From: Selenomonadales bacterium
Lineage (GTDB): Bacteria; Bacillota; Clostridia; Christensenellales; QALW01
NCBI GenBank assembly: GCA_003150515.1
Contig: QALW01000021.1
Coordinates: 163,644-227,643, forward strand
Direction: 5' to 3'
Length of the DNA: 64,000 nt
Position 1 is the stretch's first letter; every line of letters begins with the position of its first letter. Under the pieces are notes generated by a model. It saw only the letters and a program-made list of their open reading frames with translations, searched no databases and had not been told where the DNA came from. A program made the translations under genes and the position numbers. Below are positions 2,418 to 52,347 of this stretch, in pieces.

Positions 2418-3200
2418 TCAGCCTAGCCTCAGGCTCTTTTGCGGACAGCGCTCAACGCATTTTCCGCAGCCTATGCATTTTTCATTGTCTATCACAGGCA
2501 AATGATCTATCAAAGTTATCGCATGCTGCTCGCATACTTTCGCGCACAGCCCGCAGGAAACGCAGCCCACTGAACAGACGTCTTTAACCTTTCTGCCCAT
2601 CTCCTTGGCATGGCAGGCTACATATACGCGCGTATTCAAAGGCTTTATGCTTATAAGGCCATGGGGACATTCCTTAACGCACAGCCCGCAGGAAACGCAT
2701 TTAGATTTATCAATCTCAGGAACGCCGTGCTCGTTAAGGCTGATAGCGCCCATGGGACATACCCTCTGACAGCTTAAAAGGCCGACGCATCCGTAAGGAC
2801 AGCCTTTTTTGCCCTCGGCCGCGGCCGCCCGGCAATCAATAAGACCGGTATAATCCGCCCTGTCCACGCATCGCCTGCCGCCCTGACAGCCCACAAAAGC
2901 CGCCGTAGGAGACAGCGCCTCCGCTTCAACTCCTAAGAGCTCGGCAATTTTGTTTCTGTTATCCTGACTGGCCACAGGGCATTGGGATATGCTGGCCTTG
3001 CCCTCCGCCAGCGCCTTAGCCATGGCTCCGCATCCTGCAAAGCCGCAGCTTCCGCAATTAGCGCCTGAAAGCAGAGAAAGGATTTTCTCCTGTTTTTCAT
3101 CCATCGGGACGGCTATATATTTATCCGCCAGCGCAAGAGCCAGCCCCAGAATGAGTCCCAGCCCGGCGACAATGCAGACGCTTGCAATAAAAACTGTCAT
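2418..3200 (-). CDS. rnfB: Rnf electron-transport complex subunit B (polyferredoxin)
   Basis: 260 aa with an N-terminal TM helix, the CGSCGFAGC motif and several CxxCxxCxxxCP 4Fe-4S motifs. It is the last gene of an rnfCDGEAB array. Confidence 0.9.
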   Translation of the reverse strand: MTVFIASVCIVAGLGLILGLALALADKYIAVPMDEKQEKILSLLSGANCGSCGFAGCGAMAKALAEGKASISQCPVASQDNRNKIAELLGVEAEALSPTAAFVGCQGGRRCVDRADYTGLIDCRAAAAEGKKGCPYGCVGLLSCQRVCPMGAISLNEHGVPEIDKSKCVSCGLCVKECPHGLISIKPLNTRVYVACHAKEMGRKVKDVCSVGCVSCGLCAKVCEQHAITLIDHLPVIDNEKCIGCGKCVERCPQKSLRLG

Positions 3201-5906: not shown

Positions 5907-7216
5907 TTTGCTTCCCTCTCTTTCCTTATAACAGCCGCTTTGCCCAGCCTGAGCGACTGCATTAAATAGCGTTTGGCCGGACATACGAACGTGCAGCTTC
6001 CGCATTCTATGCAATCCTTAATATGCCAGGCGGCGCATTCCTCCAATTTGCCGGCGCGCTGAAATGCGTCCAGCGCAGCGGGCACCAGCCCGACAGGACA
6101 TGCCTGAACGCATTTCCCGCAGCGTATGCAGGCAGATTCCTCGGGCAGCTCGGCGTCCTTTTTATTAAGCAGAAGCAAGCCCGACGTGCCTTTTATTACC
6201 GGTGAATTTATATCTGCGGCAGCCGTCCCCATCATGGGCCCGCCTGAAATAATTTTTGCAACTTTATAACTGTCTATATCAAGAAAATTCAGCACATCGC
6301 AGATACGCGTGCCTAAAGGAATATAAAGATTATAGCCGTCCCCTATAGCGCTTCCGGCAACGGTAGTTATTCTGCCCGTAACGGGCTCCCCTTTTACGGC
6401 AGCCGCATACAGAGCCGCGGCAGTAGCCACATTCTGCACTACGCAGCCTATTTTTGACGGAAGCGCGCCCGAAGGCACCTGCCGGCGGGTAAGCTGATAT
6501 ATAAGCTGCTTTTCCGCTCCCATGGGATAGCGTTTGGGCAGCACATGAACTGCAATTTCATCAAACCGCTCAGCCTGCTCCTTCATAATTTTAATAGCCT
6601 CGGGCTTATTGGCCTCTATTCCAATTAAAATTCTCGGCGCCCCTACAGCCATGGCCGAAAGACGCGCGCCCAGCAGTATATCCAGAGAATGCTCTATCAT
6701 CAGCCTGTTATCCGCCGTTAAATAGGGCTCGCACTCGGCGCCGTTTATAATGAGAAAATCTATTTTATCTTGGGTAGCCAGCTTAACATGAGTGGGAAAA
6801 GCCGCTCCTCCCATGCCTGCAAGGCCCATCTGCTCAGCCGCGGCGATAATCTCTTCCCGGCTGGGCGACGGATTCTGACTAAACTCCGCCCGTTCATATA
6901 CGTTATCGTTATCTATGACAATAGTGGGCACGGGCTTCCCGGCGGCGTTATTATAATTTGCAATTTCCACTACTTTGCCCGACACGCTGGAATGTATATT
7001 TGCGCTTATCTGGCCGTGCCTGGCAGCTATGAGCTCGCCCAAACGGACATACTGGCCTTTAGCCACCAAGGGCTCAGCGGGGCTGCCCAGATGCTGAACC
7101 AAAGGAATATACACTCTTTCGGGCGCGGGCATGATTTGTATGGGCTTATCGGCCCAGATTACAGCCTCTTCCTGCTTGCGGCTAAGCGGATGAATACCCC
7201 CTCTTTTTTTAAACAC
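5903..7216 (-). CDS. rnfC: Rnf complex subunit C (NADH-binding, 2x4Fe-4S)
   Basis: RnfC-type sequence (FKKRGGIHP..., two CxxCxxCxxxCP motifs near the C-terminus). I place the start at GTG 7216-7214, seven nt downstream of AGGAGG (complement of 7224-7229). The track start at 7279 lies upstream of the predicted promoter. Confidence 0.88.
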   Translation of the reverse strand: MFKKRGGIHPLSRKQEEAVIWADKPIQIMPAPERVYIPLVQHLGSPAEPLVAKGQYVRLGELIAARHGQISANIHSSVSGKVVEIANYNNAAGKPVPTIVIDNDNVYERAEFSQNPSPSREEIIAAAEQMGLAGMGGAAFPTHVKLATQDKIDFLIINGAECEPYLTADNRLMIEHSLDILLGARLSAMAVGAPRILIGIEANKPEAIKIMKEQAERFDEIAVHVLPKRYPMGAEKQLIYQLTRRQVPSGALPSKIGCVVQNVATAAALYAAAVKGEPVTGRITTVAGSAIGDGYNLYIPLGTRICDVLNFLDIDSYKVAKIISGGPMMGTAAADINSPVIKGTSGLLLLNKKDAELPEESACIRCGKCVQACPVGLVPAALDAFQRAGKLEECAAWHIKDCIECGSCTFVCPAKRYLMQSLRLGKAAVIRKEREAK

Positions 7217-13657: not shown

Positions 13658-14863
13658 TTATAAAATAGCCTCCAGCGTATTTCTTATAGCCGCAATAAAT
13701 TCCGAAGAAGTAACGCTTTTTTTATTCTCCAATTCGCTCATGGCATAAAGATCTCCCGTCATTATACCCGATTCTACAGTCGCTATAACCGCCCGTTCCA
13801 GCTTTTTGGCAAATTCGCATAATTGCGGCGTGCCGTCCAGCTCGCCCCGCTTATTAAGAGCGCCCGTCCAGGCAAAAATGGTAGCTATGGGATTGGTGCT
13901 CGTGCGTTCTCCCTTGAGATAGCGATAATAGTGGCGGGTAACCGTGCCGTGAGCCGCTTCATATTCATAATTGCCCTCAGGCGAAACCAGCACGCTGGTC
14001 ATCATGGAAAGAGAGCCGAAAGCCGTGGCCACCATATCGCTCATAACATCTCCGTCATAATTCTTGCACGCCCATATAAAGCCGCCCTCCGAGCGGATTA
14101 CCCTTGCCACGGCGTCGTCAATAAGCGTATAGAAATATTCTATGCCCGCCTTTTCAAAACGCTCCTTATATTCCTTAAAAATCTCCGCGAATATATCTTT
14201 AAAGCGATGGTCATAGGTTTTGGAGATAGTGTCCTTAGTTGAGAACCACAAATCCTGCTTCTGATCCAGAGCGTAATTAAAGCAGGCATGAGCAAAGCTG
14301 GATATGGAAGCGTCGGTATTATGCATGCCCATGACTATGCCCGGAGCGTCAAAGGAATGGATTTCGGCGCGCTTTTCCTCCCCGTCGGGCAGAGTGAGCA
14401 CCAATTCGGCCTTAGCTCCCGCAGGGGCTTTAAGCTCAGTATTTTTATAAACATCGCCGTAAGCATGACGCGCGATTATTATGGGCTTTTTCCAGCTCCG
14501 CACGCTTGGACTTACTCCCTTTACTATAATAGGAGCGCGGAAAACCGTTCCGTCCAATATGGCTCTTATGGTGCCGTTGGGGCTTTTCCACATTTTTTTA
14601 AGCTTATATTCCTCTACGCGCTGGGCGTTGGGAGTTATTGTCGCGCATTTTACGCCTACTCCGTATTTTTTTATTGCCTCGGCAGCCTGAACTGTTACCT
14701 GATCGTCCGTCTCATCCCTTTTAGGCAGCCCTAAATCATAATAAGCGGTATTAAGCTCTATATAGGGCGAAAGCAGCTCGTCCTTAATCTCCTGCCATAA
14801 TATTCTGGTCATCTCGTCCCCATCCATCTCAACCAGCGGGGTGTTCATCCTTATTCTTTCCAA
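13658..14863 (-). CDS. icd: NADP-dependent isocitrate dehydrogenase (eukaryotic-type, ~400 aa)
   Basis: N-terminus (M)[22 protein letters not shown] and overall IDH1-like sequence. TTG start at 14863 lies 7 nt after GGAGG (complement of 14871-14875). Confidence 0.93.
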
Positions 14864-14900
14864 GGCGCATCCTCCTTCTATATACTTGCTGTTCTAAAGA

Positions 14901-14929
14901 ATTTTACTATAATTCCGGCGAAAAATCAA
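14901..14929 (-). promoter_or_regulatory. Putative sigma-A promoter of icd
   Basis: Minus strand reads TTGATT (14929-14924), a 17-nt spacer, then TAAAAT (14906-14901). Confidence 0.5.
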
Positions 14930-14958
14930 ATGCTTTTAAGCGAAGAGGGCAATGATTG

Positions 14959-15115
14959 AAAACATCCAGGGCGCATATAAAGGGGCGGGGCGGCTCGCGG
15001 CCCGGCCTGCGGCCGGGACAGGGGCGTTTTTGCAAAGCAAAAACCGCCCCTGCTTTGGCGCTAGGCACCAAAGCCGCGAGCCGCCCCGCCCCTTTATATG
15101 CACCCTGGATGTTTT
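14959..15115. repeat. GC-rich four-way-junction palindrome (hairpin cluster H1)
   Basis: A 43-bp outer stem (14959-15001 with 15073-15115, one mismatch) encloses three hairpins at 15002-15016, 15019-15052 and 15053-15073. Confidence 0.9.
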
Positions 15116-15141
15116 AGCGCTCTCAAACAAACAAAAACCGC

Positions 15142-15170
15142 TTGCATAAATATTCATTTTAATGTATAAT
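15142..15170 (+). promoter_or_regulatory. Putative sigma-A promoter of the arg operon with an overlapping ARG-box-like operator
   Basis: TTGCAT (15142-15147), a 17-nt spacer, then TATAAT (15165-15170). TGCATAAATATTCA (15143-15156) matches the TGAATwwwwATTCA ArgR/AhrC half-palindrome with one mismatch. Confidence 0.55.
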
Positions 15171-15205
15171 CCCATTAAATATTAAAGGACAGGATATGAT
15201 TAATT

Positions 15206-16246
15206 ATGATTAAAGCAAGCGTCATAGGCGCCACGGGATACGCCGGAGCAGAGTTGACCAGGCTTTTAACATCTCATCCAGACGTGGAAATAACCCATCT
15301 GGTCTCGCACAGCTATGCCGGCCAGGATATAAATCAAATATACAAGAGCTTTGACGGAAAATTTTCCAAAACTCTGGACGAATTGGATATAGACATGCTC
15401 ATCAGGGACAGCGACTGCATTTTCACCAGCCTGCCCCACGCTGCGGGCGGGGAGGTTATTCCTCAGCTTTACGCGGGCGGAAAAACCGTTATAGATTTAA
15501 GCGGGGACTACCGATATAACGATGTATCAATATACGAAAAATGGTACGGCGCCAGCCATCCTCATCCCGAACTGCTTAAAAAAAGCGTTTACGGCCTGCC
15601 CGAGCTGCACAGGGAGGAAATAAAAAAAGCCAGGCTTATAGGCAATCCCGGCTGCTATACAACCTGCTCCATACTGGCCCTGGCTCCTTTAGCCAAGGCG
15701 GGAATTATAGATAACTCCAGCATAGTAATAGACGCCAAATCAGGTTCCACGGGAGCGGGCCGTTCCGTCTCCCAAGCTATGCATTTCTGTGAGGTAAATG
15801 AAAGCGCAAAGGCATATAAAGTGGCCTCCCACCGTCATACCTCTGAAATTGAACAGGAATTATCCCTGCTTGCAGGAGAAGAGATTATGCTCTCCTTCAC
15901 CCCCCATTTGCTTCCCATAAACAGAGGCATACTGGCCACCAGCTATGCAAAGCTTACGGCGGACGTAGATTTTGATTACGTCTATAACCTCTATATGCAG
16001 GCGTATGCGCCCCATCCCTTTGTCGTTGTCTTAAATAACGGAGAGCTGCCCGAAATTAAGCATGTCGTCGGCTCCAACTATATCCATATAGGCTTTGTAA
16101 TAGATAAACGGCTTAAACGGATAATAGTAGTTTCGGTTATAGACAACCTGATAAAGGGCGCGGCAGGCCAGGCAATGCAAAATATGAATCTCTGCTTCGG
16201 CCTGGATGAAACCGCCGCTCTGAAAATGCCCGCGTGGTATCTCTAA
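15206..16246 (+). CDS. argC: N-acetyl-gamma-glutamyl-phosphate reductase
   Basis: 346 aa. Contains VIGATGYAG Rossmann motif and the active-site context GNPGCYTT. Confidence 0.95.
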   Translation: MIKASVIGATGYAGAELTRLLTSHPDVEITHLVSHSYAGQDINQIYKSFDGKFSKTLDELDIDMLIRDSDCIFTSLPHAAGGEVIPQLYAGGKTVIDLSGDYRYNDVSIYEKWYGASHPHPELLKKSVYGLPELHREEIKKARLIGNPGCYTTCSILALAPLAKAGIIDNSSIVIDAKSGSTGAGRSVSQAMHFCEVNESAKAYKVASHRHTSEIEQELSLLAGEEIMLSFTPHLLPINRGILATSYAKLTADVDFDYVYNLYMQAYAPHPFVVVLNNGELPEIKHVVGSNYIHIGFVIDKRLKRIIVVSVIDNLIKGAAGQAMQNMNLCFGLDETAALKMPAWYL

Positions 16247-24583: not shown

Positions 24584-24743
24584 AAAAGGCCGTGATAAGG
24601 GGGGCGTTAAGCCCAATAGGGGGGCGGCGTTTGGCAGGCTGAACCGCCTGCCCGGCCGGAGCCTTCGGCTTCGGCCGGCGGCCCTTCGGGCCGCAAACGC
24701 CGCCCCCCTATTGGGCTTAACGCCCCCTTATCACGGCCTTTTA
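24584..24743. repeat. GC-rich four-way-junction palindrome (hairpin cluster H2), also a probable bidirectional terminator
   Basis: A ~50-bp outer stem (24584-24633 with 24694-24743, one G bulge) is flanked by an A-run and a T-run. It encloses three hairpins at 24634-24651, 24652-24678 (cUUCGg loop) and 24679-24693 (cUUCGg loop). Confidence 0.9.
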
Positions 24744-24868: not shown

Positions 24869-26167
24869 ATGATTTATAAAAAAGAATTAAAGCAGAAATA
24901 TGATGTAGACGTATTCATAGCCGGAGGAGGTCCTTCCGGCTTTGCCGCCGCAACAGCCTGCGCTCGTCAGGGAAAAAGCGTTTTCCTGGCCGAAAGCCGC
25001 GGCTCATTCGGCGGCGCGGGAACGGTAGGCATGGTGCCTGCGTTCATGTGCTTCGGAGACGGCGTCAACTTTCTTGCGGGCGGAATAGGCCGGGAAATCA
25101 GGGACGCGCTTTATTCCGACAGAAGCAATAACGCTTACGGCTATGCAATACACGCGGAAACCCTTAAACGCCTATATGACAATATGGCCGTAGAAGCCGG
25201 GTTCCATTTCTCCTTTTTCACAACCCTTTCGGATGTAATAGTCTCAAACGGCCGAATAGAATACGCCGTAATCTCCTCCAAAAGCGGCATGTATCTTATT
25301 AAGGCCAAGGTTTTTATAGACGCCACCGGAGACGGCGACCTCTGCGTATGGGCAGGCGCGCAATATGAATTAGGAGACCAAAACCAAAACACCATGCCCG
25401 CAACTTTATGCAGCCTTTGGGCTAATATAGATTTTTCGCGGAGAGACGCCCGGGATGACAGCAGGCTGGAGGAAGCTATAAACGATCATATTTTTACTCT
25501 GGAGGACAGACATCTGCCCGGCATTGCCGACGCAGACCCTCCGCGCGGAGTGGGCGGCGGCAATATAGGCCATTGTTTTAACGTCAATCCTATTGATGAA
25601 GCCTCCCTGACAAAAGCTATGCTTTGGGGACGCAAAACCCTGCCCGAATACGAGCGCTATTACAACAATTACCTCAAGGGCTTCGAACACGCGGGCATCT
25701 GTTCTACGGCAGACCTTTTAGGAGTAAGGGAATCCCGCCGCATAAAAGGCGATTATGAGCTTTGCGCTCAGGATTTTCTTGATAGAGCGGTATTTGAAGA
25801 TGAAATAGGGCGGTATTGTTATCCTGTGGACATACACATCATGGCTCCCGATAAAGAATCATATGAAGCGTTTAAGGCAGAATACGCGCGTTTCAGCTAT
25901 GCCCCGGGCGAATCCTACGGCATCCCCTACCGTTCTCTGCTTCCTGCCGGCCTTTCAAACGTGCTGGTAACAGGCAAATGCATAAGCACGGACCGCCAGA
26001 TGCAAGCCTCCATAAGAGTTATGCCCGGCTGCTACATAACCGGGCAGGCAGCCGGAATAGCGGCGGCGCTGGCCTGTTCCCGCGGCAGCGAAACCCGCGG
26101 CATAGATATAAAAGAGCTGCAGCGCCGCATAAAAAATATGGGCGGTTTTCTCCCCAACGTCCGATAA
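24869..26167 (+). CDS. FAD-dependent oxidoreductase (FAD_oxidored / GlcNAc-type flavoprotein family)
   Basis: Dinucleotide fold DVFIAGGGPSGFAAA. About 432 aa. ATG at 24869 lies 8 nt after AAAAGG. The alternative start is GTG at 24860 (track). Confidence 0.75.
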   Translation: MIYKKELKQKYDVDVFIAGGGPSGFAAATACARQGKSVFLAESRGSFGGAGTVGMVPAFMCFGDGVNFLAGGIGREIRDALYSDRSNNAYGYAIHAETLKRLYDNMAVEAGFHFSFFTTLSDVIVSNGRIEYAVISSKSGMYLIKAKVFIDATGDGDLCVWAGAQYELGDQNQNTMPATLCSLWANIDFSRRDARDDSRLEEAINDHIFTLEDRHLPGIADADPPRGVGGGNIGHCFNVNPIDEASLTKAMLWGRKTLPEYERYYNNYLKGFEHAGICSTADLLGVRESRRIKGDYELCAQDFLDRAVFEDEIGRYCYPVDIHIMAPDKESYEAFKAEYARFSYAPGESYGIPYRSLLPAGLSNVLVTGKCISTDRQMQASIRVMPGCYITGQAAGIAAALACSRGSETRGIDIKELQRRIKNMGGFLPNVR

Positions 26168-26324
26168 GACAACTCAATCAGAATACAATGCTATGCAAAG
26201 GAAGAAATGATCCGTTTTACTGCGCCCTCCTCTTTCAAATATCTTAAATATTTTTAAGAGCTTGCATTAAAACGGACGCGTCTCTTCCGCAAAAAACATT
26301 GTATTCTGATTGATTTATCTAAGC
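26165..26324. repeat. MITE-like repeat family, copy B (complete, compact)
   Basis: The terminal inverted repeat caatcagaatacaatg (26178-26193) is the exact complement of cattgtattctgattg (26297-26312). The arms align with the two arms of copy C in the opposite orientation. The first bases, TAAGAC, include the stop codon of the upstream CDS. Confidence 0.8.
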
Positions 26325-40724: not shown

Positions 40725-40756
40725 AGCAGGGTTAAAAATTAGCCCTGCTTTTTTAT
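40725..40756 (+). terminator. Rho-independent terminator of the spoIIIA operon
   Basis: agcaggg (40725-40731) pairs with ccctgct (40743-40749), followed by a T-run to 40756. Confidence 0.7.
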
Positions 40757-40785
40757 TTAAATAATTATGCCCCGGATATAGGCGG

Positions 40786-41061
40786 GGATGGCGAAATGGC
40801 GCCCAGACCGGCATAAATGCCGGCCTGGGCGCCGGGGGCGCGCCGTTGGGCAAGCCTTAAGGCTTGCCCTTGGCCGAGCATAGCTCGGCCCGAGCGGCCT
40901 ACGGCCGCTCAACGGCGCGCCCCCGGCGGCCCCCATTCAAGCGCCCTATAGGGCGCTTGAATGGGGGCCGCAAAAGAGCGTGCAAAGAAAGCAAGCTTTC
41001 TTTGCACGCTCTTTTGCGGGCAAGGCCTGCTTTGCAGGCCTTGCCCGCCATTTCGCCATCC
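40786..41061. repeat. GC-rich nested hairpin array (cluster H3a), 276 nt
   Basis: A closing stem (40786-40799 with 41048-41061) encloses these hairpins:
- 40800-40831
- a four-way junction at 40832-40927, with arms at 40848-40869, 40872-40890 and 40892-40910
- 40927-40970
- 40971-41016
- 41017-41047
The hairpins are tiled with essentially no unpaired spacer. Confidence 0.9.
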
Positions 41062-41079
41062 TAGCCCCTTGCTCTAAAT

Positions 41080-41190
41080 TTCAAAGCCGGCGCAGCATGC
41101 GGCGTTTGGCAGGCTAATAGCCTGCCCGGCCGAACTTTGTTCGGCCCGCGGCCGCAGGCCGCAAACGCCGCATGCTGCGCCGGCTTTGAA
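41080..41190. repeat. GC-rich four-way-junction palindrome (cluster H3b), same core as H2
   Basis: A 29-bp outer stem (41080-41108 with 41162-41190) closes three hairpins at 41109-41125, 41128-41146 and 41148-41162. It shares GCGGCGTTTGGCAGGCT, GCCTGCCCGGCCG and GGCCGCAAACGCCGC with 24625-24705. Confidence 0.9.
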
Positions 41191-50310: not shown

Positions 50311-50473
50311 GAAAGTTCTCCTTTTATAGATTAACGCTAAGATAATTATACAATAAAAAACGAAAAAACGCTATAAAAATCTAAAAATATATTCAGGGAA
50401 TCACTTGATATATTGTAAATAATTATATGTGTTATTTTGCCTGTTTTTTGCAATATTTTAATTGCAAAAATTA

Positions 50474-50658
50474 CTGAGGCCCGCAAATAAATAAGGCGCT
50501 CAAGCGCCTTATTTATTTGCGGGCCTCAGCCTCCTGGCAGGGGTATGCCAATAGTCTTAAAGCGCGGGCGGCTCGCGCTTTAAGACTATTGGCATACCCC
50601 TGCCAGGAGGAACAAATGACGGCCTATGTCCGGCAACGCCGGACATAGGCCGTCATTT
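50474..50658. repeat. Three tandem perfect long hairpins (cluster H4)
   Basis: Three hairpins: 26-bp stem at 50474-50529 (loop tcaa), 37-bp stem at 50530-50610 (loop ggcggct) and 21-bp stem at 50614-50658 (loop aac). All stems are perfect. Confidence 0.9.
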
Positions 50659-50687
50659 ACAAAAACTAATCTCTCATAAACAGAAAC

Positions 50688-51935: not shown

Positions 51936-52136
51936 CAGGTTTGCCTCCTTAATGCGCCTTAACAGGGTATGGGCGCTTCAAATTGCTACCCTATGGCAAT
52001 AATTATGCCTCTTGTTTTTAATTTATGCACGCATTATAACACGAGTGAAATGAAAATGCAATAGTTTTGTAATATTTAATTGTGAATTTTTTATGTGCGC
52101 CTTTTTACGAGGAAATATTTTAAAATTTTTCAGGCT

Positions 52137-52309
52137 GGCCCTGGGCGCGTAAACGCGCCCAGGGCCAAAGTCTCAATATAGCCCGGAAAGCTTTGCTTTC
52201 CGGGCTATATTGAGACTTTGCGCCCGGCCTAAAGGCCGGGCGCAGCCCTTTAAATAAACGGCCGATGGGCTCAAGATATCAAAAATGATATCTTGAGCCC
52301 ATCGGCCGT
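52137..52309. repeat. Four tandem perfect hairpins (cluster H5)
   Basis: Four perfect hairpins at 52137-52166 (13 bp, taaa), 52167-52219 (25 bp, ttt), 52220-52243 (10 bp, taaa) and 52258-52309 (24 bp, aaaa). Confidence 0.9.
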
Positions 52310-52347
52310 AATTTAAAAATAACTCAATTAAATCAGTTAAAAATAAA

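Follow-up and report, generated by a model that had tools for sequence, protein, structure and literature searches.

REP/BIME/REPIN sequences of Proteobacteria are multi-copy, GC-rich extragenic palindromes that build mosaic intergenic arrays and reuse small hairpin modules. Roles in supercoiling, termination and mRNA stabilisation have been proposed for REP/BIME, in which a conserved GTAG or CGTC tetranucleotide marks one end of the palindromic unit (PMC3733652). Hairpin-folding bacterial miniature inverted-repeat transposable elements (MITEs; Correia/NEMIS, ERIC, RUP, BOX) are likewise intergenic and multi-copy, measure 100-200 nt, fold into a stable hairpin over their whole length, and may adjoin promoters and alter transcription (PMC3184786). 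We have characterized an element that resembles both: a 157-nt branched palindrome (positions 14959-15115) between the divergent icd and argC genes, in a 64,000-nt stretch of contig QALW01000021.1 from a Selenomonadales bacterium, referred to hereafter as the window. We consider it probable, though well short of certain, that this element is a resident copy of a lineage-specific, REP/BIME- or MITE-like family of GC-rich multi-hairpin palindromic repeats, tolerated and self-maintaining, and is not a device for icd or arg control.

Neither system provides an exact match. REP/BIME sequences belong to Proteobacteria, whereas the host here, an uncultured Christensenellaceae bacterium of the human gut, is one of the Clostridia, and GTAG, CTAC, CGTC and GACG are all absent from 14959-15115 and occur only sporadically in 12 other elements. 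A short (20-40 nt) palindromic unit in many copies and an associated RAYT (Y1 transposase) gene are further marks of REP/BIME; small modules recur among the elements here, and the genes adjoining those of the window are housekeeping genes. Unlike REP/BIME, the elements have three-hairpin cores set in perfect stems of 30-50 bp that are unique to each copy, giving a four-way-junction and nested architecture. The MITE arrangement is reversed: MITEs conserve their terminal inverted repeats and vary in the centre, whereas here the centre and proximal stem are common and the outer arms unique. There is also no target-site duplication, the flanks (CAATGATTG on the left, AGCGCTCTC on the right) containing no direct repeat, and no parent insertion sequence is known for the palindrome family.

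Other comparisons account for part of what was observed. Template switching at inverted repeats (quasipalindrome mutagenesis) homogenises arms, inverts spacers and expands arms, and so explains the mirrored arm changes, the inversion between arms and the arm growth described below (PMC8604942, PMC8794818, PMC13100816); being a general mutational process, however, it leaves the presence of the same core at many loci unexplained. Intrinsic terminators and the hairpin clusters proposed as terminators (PMC8355165) share the GC-rich stems bounded by A/T runs, and many members of the family stand directly after stop codons. The family members are nevertheless far longer and are branched, the icd-argC copy lies at no 3' end, has both neighbouring genes aiming away from it and is negative in a terminator scan, and a normal terminator coexists with one complex (40728-40760). 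Among organelle elements, the GC clusters of yeast mitochondria are GC-rich hairpin elements of a similar kind. The RHE of sponge organelles are GC-rich hairpins that invade AT-rich intergenic DNA, fall into structure-defined families and have proliferated in lineages (PMC2800124). These organelle elements differ in lying outside bacterial chromosomes and in being simple or double hairpins that lack long unique outer stems. Literature searches brought up no account of elements of this kind from the Christensenellales or elsewhere in the Clostridia, nor did a check of an inverted-repeat survey of 118,019 genomes, and the palindrome family appears to be undescribed.

Structure and setting of the icd-argC palindrome

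The 157-nt palindrome described by an earlier, sequence-only reading is real. A repeat search recovered outer-stem arms at 14959-15001 and 15073-15115 (43 nt, 98% complementary, 71 nt between them), with a sole mismatch, C14972 against A15102. The distal part of the left arm (14959-14978) is unique to the species, and the proximal part (14979-15001, AAAGGGGCGGGGCGGCTCGCGGC) is kept in the orthologues and in the paralogue considered below. The three inner hairpins were found as claimed, except that G15073 had been counted both in the third hairpin and in the outer stem. In the minimum free energy (MFE) fold, C15001-G15017 becomes a seventh pair of hairpin 1, and the outer stem consists of 14959-15000 paired to 15074-15115; as G15073 is unable to serve both helices, the junction can migrate by one pair. 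The MFE structure was the four-way junction under RNA and DNA treatment alike. Folded as RNA, the element reached -136.1 kcal/mol, where shuffled sequences averaged -70.6 (z = -16.6; 0/200 shuffles as stable), and folded as DNA it reached -85.8 kcal/mol (z = -15.0). Pieces of 23 and 25 nt from the arms match the two arms alone in the window, where the chance expectation is 0. The GC fraction is 0.64 in the element versus 0.33 in the remainder of the icd-argC spacer.

The first of the hairpins, CCGGCC-TGC-GGCCGG (15002-15016), is a small GC module whose 18-mer GCCCGGCCTGCGGCCGGG recurs exactly in contigs L022 and L025 and near-exactly in several more elements. The middle hairpin (15019-15052) has 15 bp and one bulge. 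Its base, (C)AGGGGC...GCCCC(TG), is kept in the orthologues L010 and L013 and reads CCGGGC...GCCCGG in the paralogue L030; its tip is different in each species, yet paired in all. Hairpin 3, CTTTGGCGC-TAG-GCACCAAAG (15053-15073; one mismatch, C15059 against A15067), stacks on the outer stem and is kept as CTTTGGCCGC...GCGGCCAAAG in orthologues and paralogue. Outside the perfect stem, the flanks GAAGAGGGC and GCGCTCTC (14940-14958 with 15116-15125) pair imperfectly around an asymmetric loop, and may represent an older layer of the palindrome or one still forming.

The spacer is bounded by icd (NADP isocitrate dehydrogenase; 13658-14863, minus strand) and argC (15206-16246, plus strand), which leads argC-argB-argD. 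As had been proposed, the element precedes both predicted promoters and is not at the 3' end of any gene; no gene terminates in the spacer. It lies between the predicted -35 boxes, separated from each by 27-30 nt. The predicted icd promoter, TTGATT-17-TAAAAT (14901-14929, minus strand), was found by a promoter scan. That of the arg operon, TTGCAT-17-TATAAT (15142-15170, plus strand), was identified by eye, its -35 hexamer falling short of the scan's 4-of-6 criterion; it overlaps an ARG-box-like palindrome, TGCATAAATATTCA, within 15139-15172, which suggests that the operon is under ArgR/AhrC control. Both promoter motifs are conserved among relatives, whether or not these have the element. L010, L013 and L018, which carry it, are almost identical over the arg promoter region CGCTTGCATAAATATTCATTTTAATGTATAATCC, and so are L047 and L048. 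Two promoter-like pairs aim into the element and stand back to back with the icd and arg promoters: TTAATA-18-TAAAAT from the arg side (15185-15156, minus strand; promoter scan) and TTGCTG-16-TATAAT from the icd side (14886-14913, plus strand; by eye).

A dispersed family of branched palindromes

A window-wide inverted-repeat search returned ten further long near-perfect inverted-repeat pairs of the same kind, differing in sequence. A sliding 100-nt folding scan revealed five super-stable intergenic loci, that between icd and argC included, at about 14.95, 24.6, 40.8-41.2, 50.4-50.7 and 52.1-52.3 kb. By folding, a long stem closing three GC-rich hairpins recurs at 24584-24743, 40827-40931 and 41080-41190. 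Among window spacers of at least 100 nt, the five elements occupied 3/14 tandem, 1/7 convergent and 1/5 divergent spacers; with rates this similar (n = 5 elements), a bias in spacer context was rejected. Beyond these five, what is said of context draws on about a dozen elements elsewhere. The adjoining genes include SpoIIIAH, Fe-hydrogenase, AdoHcyase, a cell-wall hydrolase, TyrRS and an ABC transporter, and no transposase is found among the genes that flank the window's elements.

The member at 24584-24743 lies between the ABC transporter gene and a gene for an FAD oxidoreductase, and has a stem of about 50 bp and three hairpins. Its core reads GGCGGCGTTTG, then a GCAGGC hairpin, a CGGCCG hairpin and a GGCC hairpin, then CAAACGCCGCC. 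At 40781-41066 there is a nested complex of 286 nt (-266 kcal/mol) with five branches, closed by one 16-bp stem (GGATGGCGAAATGGCG / CGCCATTTCGCCATCC); its branch at 40827-40931 is a four-way junction of the family type. The conventional terminator at 40728-40760, a hairpin followed by a T run, stands directly before this complex. A third four-way junction, of a GTTTG subfamily, follows at 41080-41190. The last two loci are arrays of perfect 25-40-bp hairpins. That at 50445-50660 contains four long near-perfect hairpins, one of which (50530-50610) is probably a decayed allele of a four-way junction, and that at 52133-52318, found by inverted-repeat search and folding, begins with a multi-branch structure and continues as a long-hairpin array of the same kind. 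A 415-aa open reading frame (ORF) between the two arrays, considered as a possible TnpB, proved to be the cell-wall hydrolase.

The family extends to other genomes. The junction motif common to the elements at 24.6 and 41.1 kb was used to scan genomes, and apart from one chance match the hits were copies of the family: six from Candidatus Neochristensenella gallicola and two from UMGS1037, an uncultured Clostridiales metagenome-assembled genome. In all 8 true copies one and the same core, about 85 nt in length, is enclosed by a long, perfectly paired outer stem that differs from copy to copy, and several are nested in further stems. When ten cores were aligned, the junction sequence was invariant and the middle hairpin carried mirrored changes. 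The three-hairpin four-way plan was also seen in L010, L013, L019-L027 and L030. The plan of the family is a long perfect outer stem, a tip hairpin that prolongs this stem, and two adjoining side hairpins that make the four-way junction; between copies the proximal stem and the hairpin bases are common and the distal arms are copy-specific.

Two covariance models, for which E-values are rough, bear on the kinship of the icd-argC element with these copies. The first (R1) was built from 10 GTTTG-subfamily cores with the icd-argC element left out. It picked up additional members and scored the icd-argC element at 31.2 bits (E of about 0.005, minus strand); the orthologues in L010 and L013 were unreported and the paralogue in L030 had E = 4.3. 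The second (R2), built on the subfamily of the icd-argC element, detected members of the R1 type at E-values of 1e-5 to 1e-6, plus more copies.

A metagenome scan with the element's own junction motif gave 19 matches. Eleven belong to an unrelated terminator locus of another organism and one is a GC-rich chance match; the scan also gave the icd-argC orthologues and one true paralogue (L030/L034), which sits between an AraC-family regulator gene and a divergent uncharacterised 407-aa gene. With the icd-argC element this paralogue shares the proximal stem GGGGGCGGCCCGCAG and two hairpins, CTTTGGCCGC..GCGGCCAAAG and CCCGGCC..GGCCGGG, so that the icd-argC core sequence occurs at more than one genomic locus. 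The small hairpin module GCCCGGCC-N3-GGCCGGGC is reused exactly in other elements. Contig L030 holds three family members within 7.5 kb (1136-1272, 2120-2315 and 6968-7064), two of them bracketing the AraC-family regulator gene. As one copy of a family dispersed in the intergenic DNA of a gut Christensenellaceae lineage, the icd-argC element is unlikely to have been purpose-built for its two neighbours.

Inversion, maintenance and decay of the palindromes

A four-way junction is found at the same place in the syntenic contigs L010 (argC 88% identical) and L013 (85%). The cores align once the window copy is reverse-complemented, demonstrating that the window core runs in the opposite orientation to those of L010 and L013. 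All three have in common the proximal stem GGGGCGGC.CGC.G, two hairpins (CTTTGG...CCAAAG and the small CCCGGCC...GGCCGGG) and the base of the middle hairpin. Two interspecies differences in the proximal stem are each mirrored in both arms, and the distal outer stem is unrelated between species and fully paired in each. A search by eye for homology between a distal arm and the flank of another species, as expected if arms originate by inverted duplication, found none.

Three further contigs end at or near the site. L018 (argC 84%) begins inside the element, which is therefore partly present; L048 (86%) begins at the end of its right arm; and L047 (83%) begins just past the arm, so that it does not cover the element. 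In L016, L017 and L049 (argC 72-74%) both promoter motifs are kept and the spacer contains no such structure. Relatives of this kind had been named in the sequence-only reading as evidence that would count against a role: the motifs are indeed retained in these three species, but their promoter spacing differs, and the comparison concerns the motifs only. Since relatives that keep the promoter motifs lack it, the element is a gain made inside the clade and the promoters do not require it. We infer that the icd-argC spacer acquired it in the common ancestor of those species whose argC is at least 84% identical.

Closely related sequences capture the changes that such palindromes undergo. L010 and L026 are identical in outer stem and flanks, yet the core of one is, bar two substitutions, the exact reverse complement of the other's. 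A clustered pair of substitutions in L031, CTTGAGTT to CTTTATTT, renders the left arm a perfect complement of the right arm, and a single T-A to G-C pair change is half complete in each of two other strains. Loops are also found reverse-complemented between conspecific strains (GTT/AAC, TTGA/TCAA and TAAAA/TTTTA).

Hairpins are lost as well. The hairpin at 50530-50610 was compared among conspecific strains with an identical hydrolase protein (L052, L054-L057, about 2830-3060), and three alleles were distinguished: the simple hairpin of the window, an extended hairpin with 40 additional nt, and a four-way junction with 120 additional nt. The junction allele has the family's proximal stem and small GC hairpin. 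Its occurrence in two diverged haplotype groups indicates that it is probably ancestral, the shorter alleles being precise internal deletions with microhomologies of 1-2 nt. Similarly, the two side hairpins of the junction at 41080-41190 are precisely absent from some conspecific strains (L060, L063), in which a loss of 36 nt (41123-41158) leaves a perfect simple hairpin. Precise loss across the hairpin base is a classic fate of palindromes.

The element behaves as a DNA palindrome and not as an RNA gene. Across 17 elements the helices are 98-99% Watson-Crick, with 15 G-U pairs in 1,285 on one strand and 31 in 1,306 on the other. A strand bias acting at the RNA level was rejected, the counts bearing no consistent relation to the direction of transcription. 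Contigs L008, L009, L018, L023, L024, L048 and L063-L066 end inside or at the edge of palindromes, and L047 adjoins one; in this lineage the family systematically interrupts assemblies.

These observations are consistent with a mechanism in which intrastrand template switching or gene conversion at replication would hold the arms complementary and lengthen them. The element would persist by filling the one part of the spacer that is free of promoter and operator constraint, up to limits set by the two promoters. It would have no dedicated role in icd or arg control, and any effect, such as a bidirectional block of stray transcription or a cruciform that absorbs negative supercoils, would be a by-product.

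Alternative readings and the wider setting

Several observations weigh against a merely tolerated repeat. The core is kept between diverged species (44 nt at 98% between L010 and L013) where the surrounding neutral DNA has diverged, which implies constraint or concerted evolution beyond that of a purely neutral repeat. The element has been retained through at least four species and is fixed in 8/8 conspecific sequences, as selection could explain, and no empty and filled alleles were seen for the icd-argC copy. No mobilising enzyme or transposase was identified, the window neighbours all being housekeeping genes. Both known copies of the CTTTGG subfamily (2/2) are in divergent spacers, which hints at a preference for this context. 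Finally, in the icd-argC element of three species the minus-strand fold has 2, 3 and 3 G-U pairs versus 0, 0 and 1 in the plus-strand fold; this excess could reflect strand-biased C-to-T mutation, in view of the negative GC skew of the window, or weak selection at the RNA level.

The main rival to a self-maintaining resident repeat is a selected bidirectional transcription block or insulator that keeps icd and the ArgR-controlled arg operon independent by stopping transcripts that begin behind either promoter or enter from either gene, other members of the family serving as terminators or 3' stabilisers. We hold this to be unlikely overall, and retain it because the core is conserved, the element has stayed at its site, and the only known paralogue is also in a divergent spacer. 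The sequence-only reading went too far in stating that a terminator role was not available. With AAAAC...GTTTT bordering the palindrome, a very stable GC-rich stem is followed on both strands by a short T run, and promoter-like hexamers aim inward from both sides; a bidirectional block of transcription is thus possible. The 24584-24743 member (AAAAGGCC...GGCCTTTT) is, moreover, the only terminator-like structure after the ABC transporter gene, and hairpin clusters have been proposed as intrinsic terminators (PMC8355165). Against this, the terminator scan found 0 terminator-like sites in 14600-15400, the T run is just 4 nt and is paired with the A run, and the inward promoter-like sites show no clear conservation in L010 or L013 when compared by eye. 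A conventional terminator already precedes the large complex at 40.8 kb, where the element would be superfluous; three relatives share the promoter motifs and have no structure of this kind; and alleles with and without side hairpins coexist within one species. The dedicated cruciform, insulator or protein-docking role that had been proposed for this control region fares worse, and a locus-specific site co-regulating icd and the arg operon seems to us improbable. Its exact placement between the two -35 boxes, the core sequence conserved between species and a paralogue likewise in a divergent regulatory spacer favour such a site, as would negative supercoiling from divergent transcription, which would promote cruciform extrusion. 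However, the family is dispersed, with four more loci in the window and a paralogue elsewhere, the same architecture and modules standing between unrelated genes and in tandem and convergent spacers, and relatives that lack the element retain both promoter motifs. From one species to another the core is inverted with the flanks unchanged, which would reposition any asymmetric binding site, and the distal arms are unrelated.

A more speculative proposal, which we rate below the insulator, is that the palindromes form a class of DNA element, so far undescribed, that propagates by its structure. Recognised as a four-way DNA junction by the cell or by a dedicated enzyme, a three-hairpin cassette of about 80-110 nt would spread to new sites, where its arms would extend themselves by template switching into nested, self-maintaining palindromes; copies between back-to-back promoters, the icd-argC element and the AraC-linked paralogue among them, would be extruded as cruciforms by the negative supercoiling that transcription drives and be selected as topological and transcriptional insulators. 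Very improbable, in our estimate, is a structured non-coding RNA or 5' untranslated region element on the minus strand, towards icd. It would fit the two mismatches of the window copy, both of which are G-U on the minus strand, and the minus-strand fold, which is more stable by 3.5-10.7 kcal/mol in the three species (window 14955-15120; L010 9720-9920; L013 9730-9925). R1 also scores the minus strand above the plus strand, and there is a sub-threshold minus-strand Rfam match (RF02616, 33.2 bits versus a gathering score of 72). Yet the window contains no match to any Rfam family at gathering score, Watson-Crick helices this regular and up to 43 bp long are unlike known functional RNAs, the core is inverted from strain to strain and from species to species, so that loops become their complements and the hairpins run in the opposite order, and the conserved icd promoter lies downstream of the element, which no conserved promoter precedes. 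An assembly or sequencing artefact deserves next to no credence: several contigs do break inside or beside these palindromes, but the identical 342-nt spacer is present within long contigs of seven independent metagenome assemblies, each from a separate sample, and orthologues occur in other species.

If the element is a resident family copy, as we favour, the locus would have no purpose-built regulatory palindrome but a passenger in the freely variable part of the icd-argC spacer. Christensenellaceae are among the most studied heritable bacteria of the human gut. Very stable branched palindromes appear to be scattered through their genomes, about 1 per 13 kb in the window; they break short-read assemblies, flip and shed hairpins within populations, and keep their centre while the arms turn over. 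They offer a natural system for how long palindromes originate, stay perfect and are tolerated in a bacterial chromosome, and are a source of strain-level structural markers. Should some copies insulate or terminate transcription, they would also be relevant to operon annotation in these uncultured organisms.

Other identities were considered and rejected. A known RNA family was discounted on 0 Rfam matches at gathering score in the whole window, RF02616 being taken as a generic long-hairpin match, and a tRNA or tmRNA cloverleaf on 0 ARAGORN genes in 14800-15300. On both strands, ORFs of 53-79 aa run through the palindrome and were dismissed as by-products of a GC-rich palindrome; one gene caller predicted a 65-aa ORF across it in L006, without a Pfam match. 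Insertion-sequence ends or a neighbouring transposase were rejected, the flanking window genes being housekeeping. A plasmid, phage or viral origin was rejected, with no blastn match in plasmid and phage collections and no exact match to the core in viral contigs.

Over positions 1-6200 of L003, an otherwise conspecific contig, the genes are different (HSP70, GrpE, HrcA and others) and stable folding windows are many; the latter suggest a higher GC content, and the start of the contig would represent a strain-specific rearrangement or a chimeric assembly. A convergent spacer of the window contains, at 26167-26320, an AT-rich 24-nt inverted repeat (92% complementary, 106-nt spacer) that is unlike the GC-rich family.

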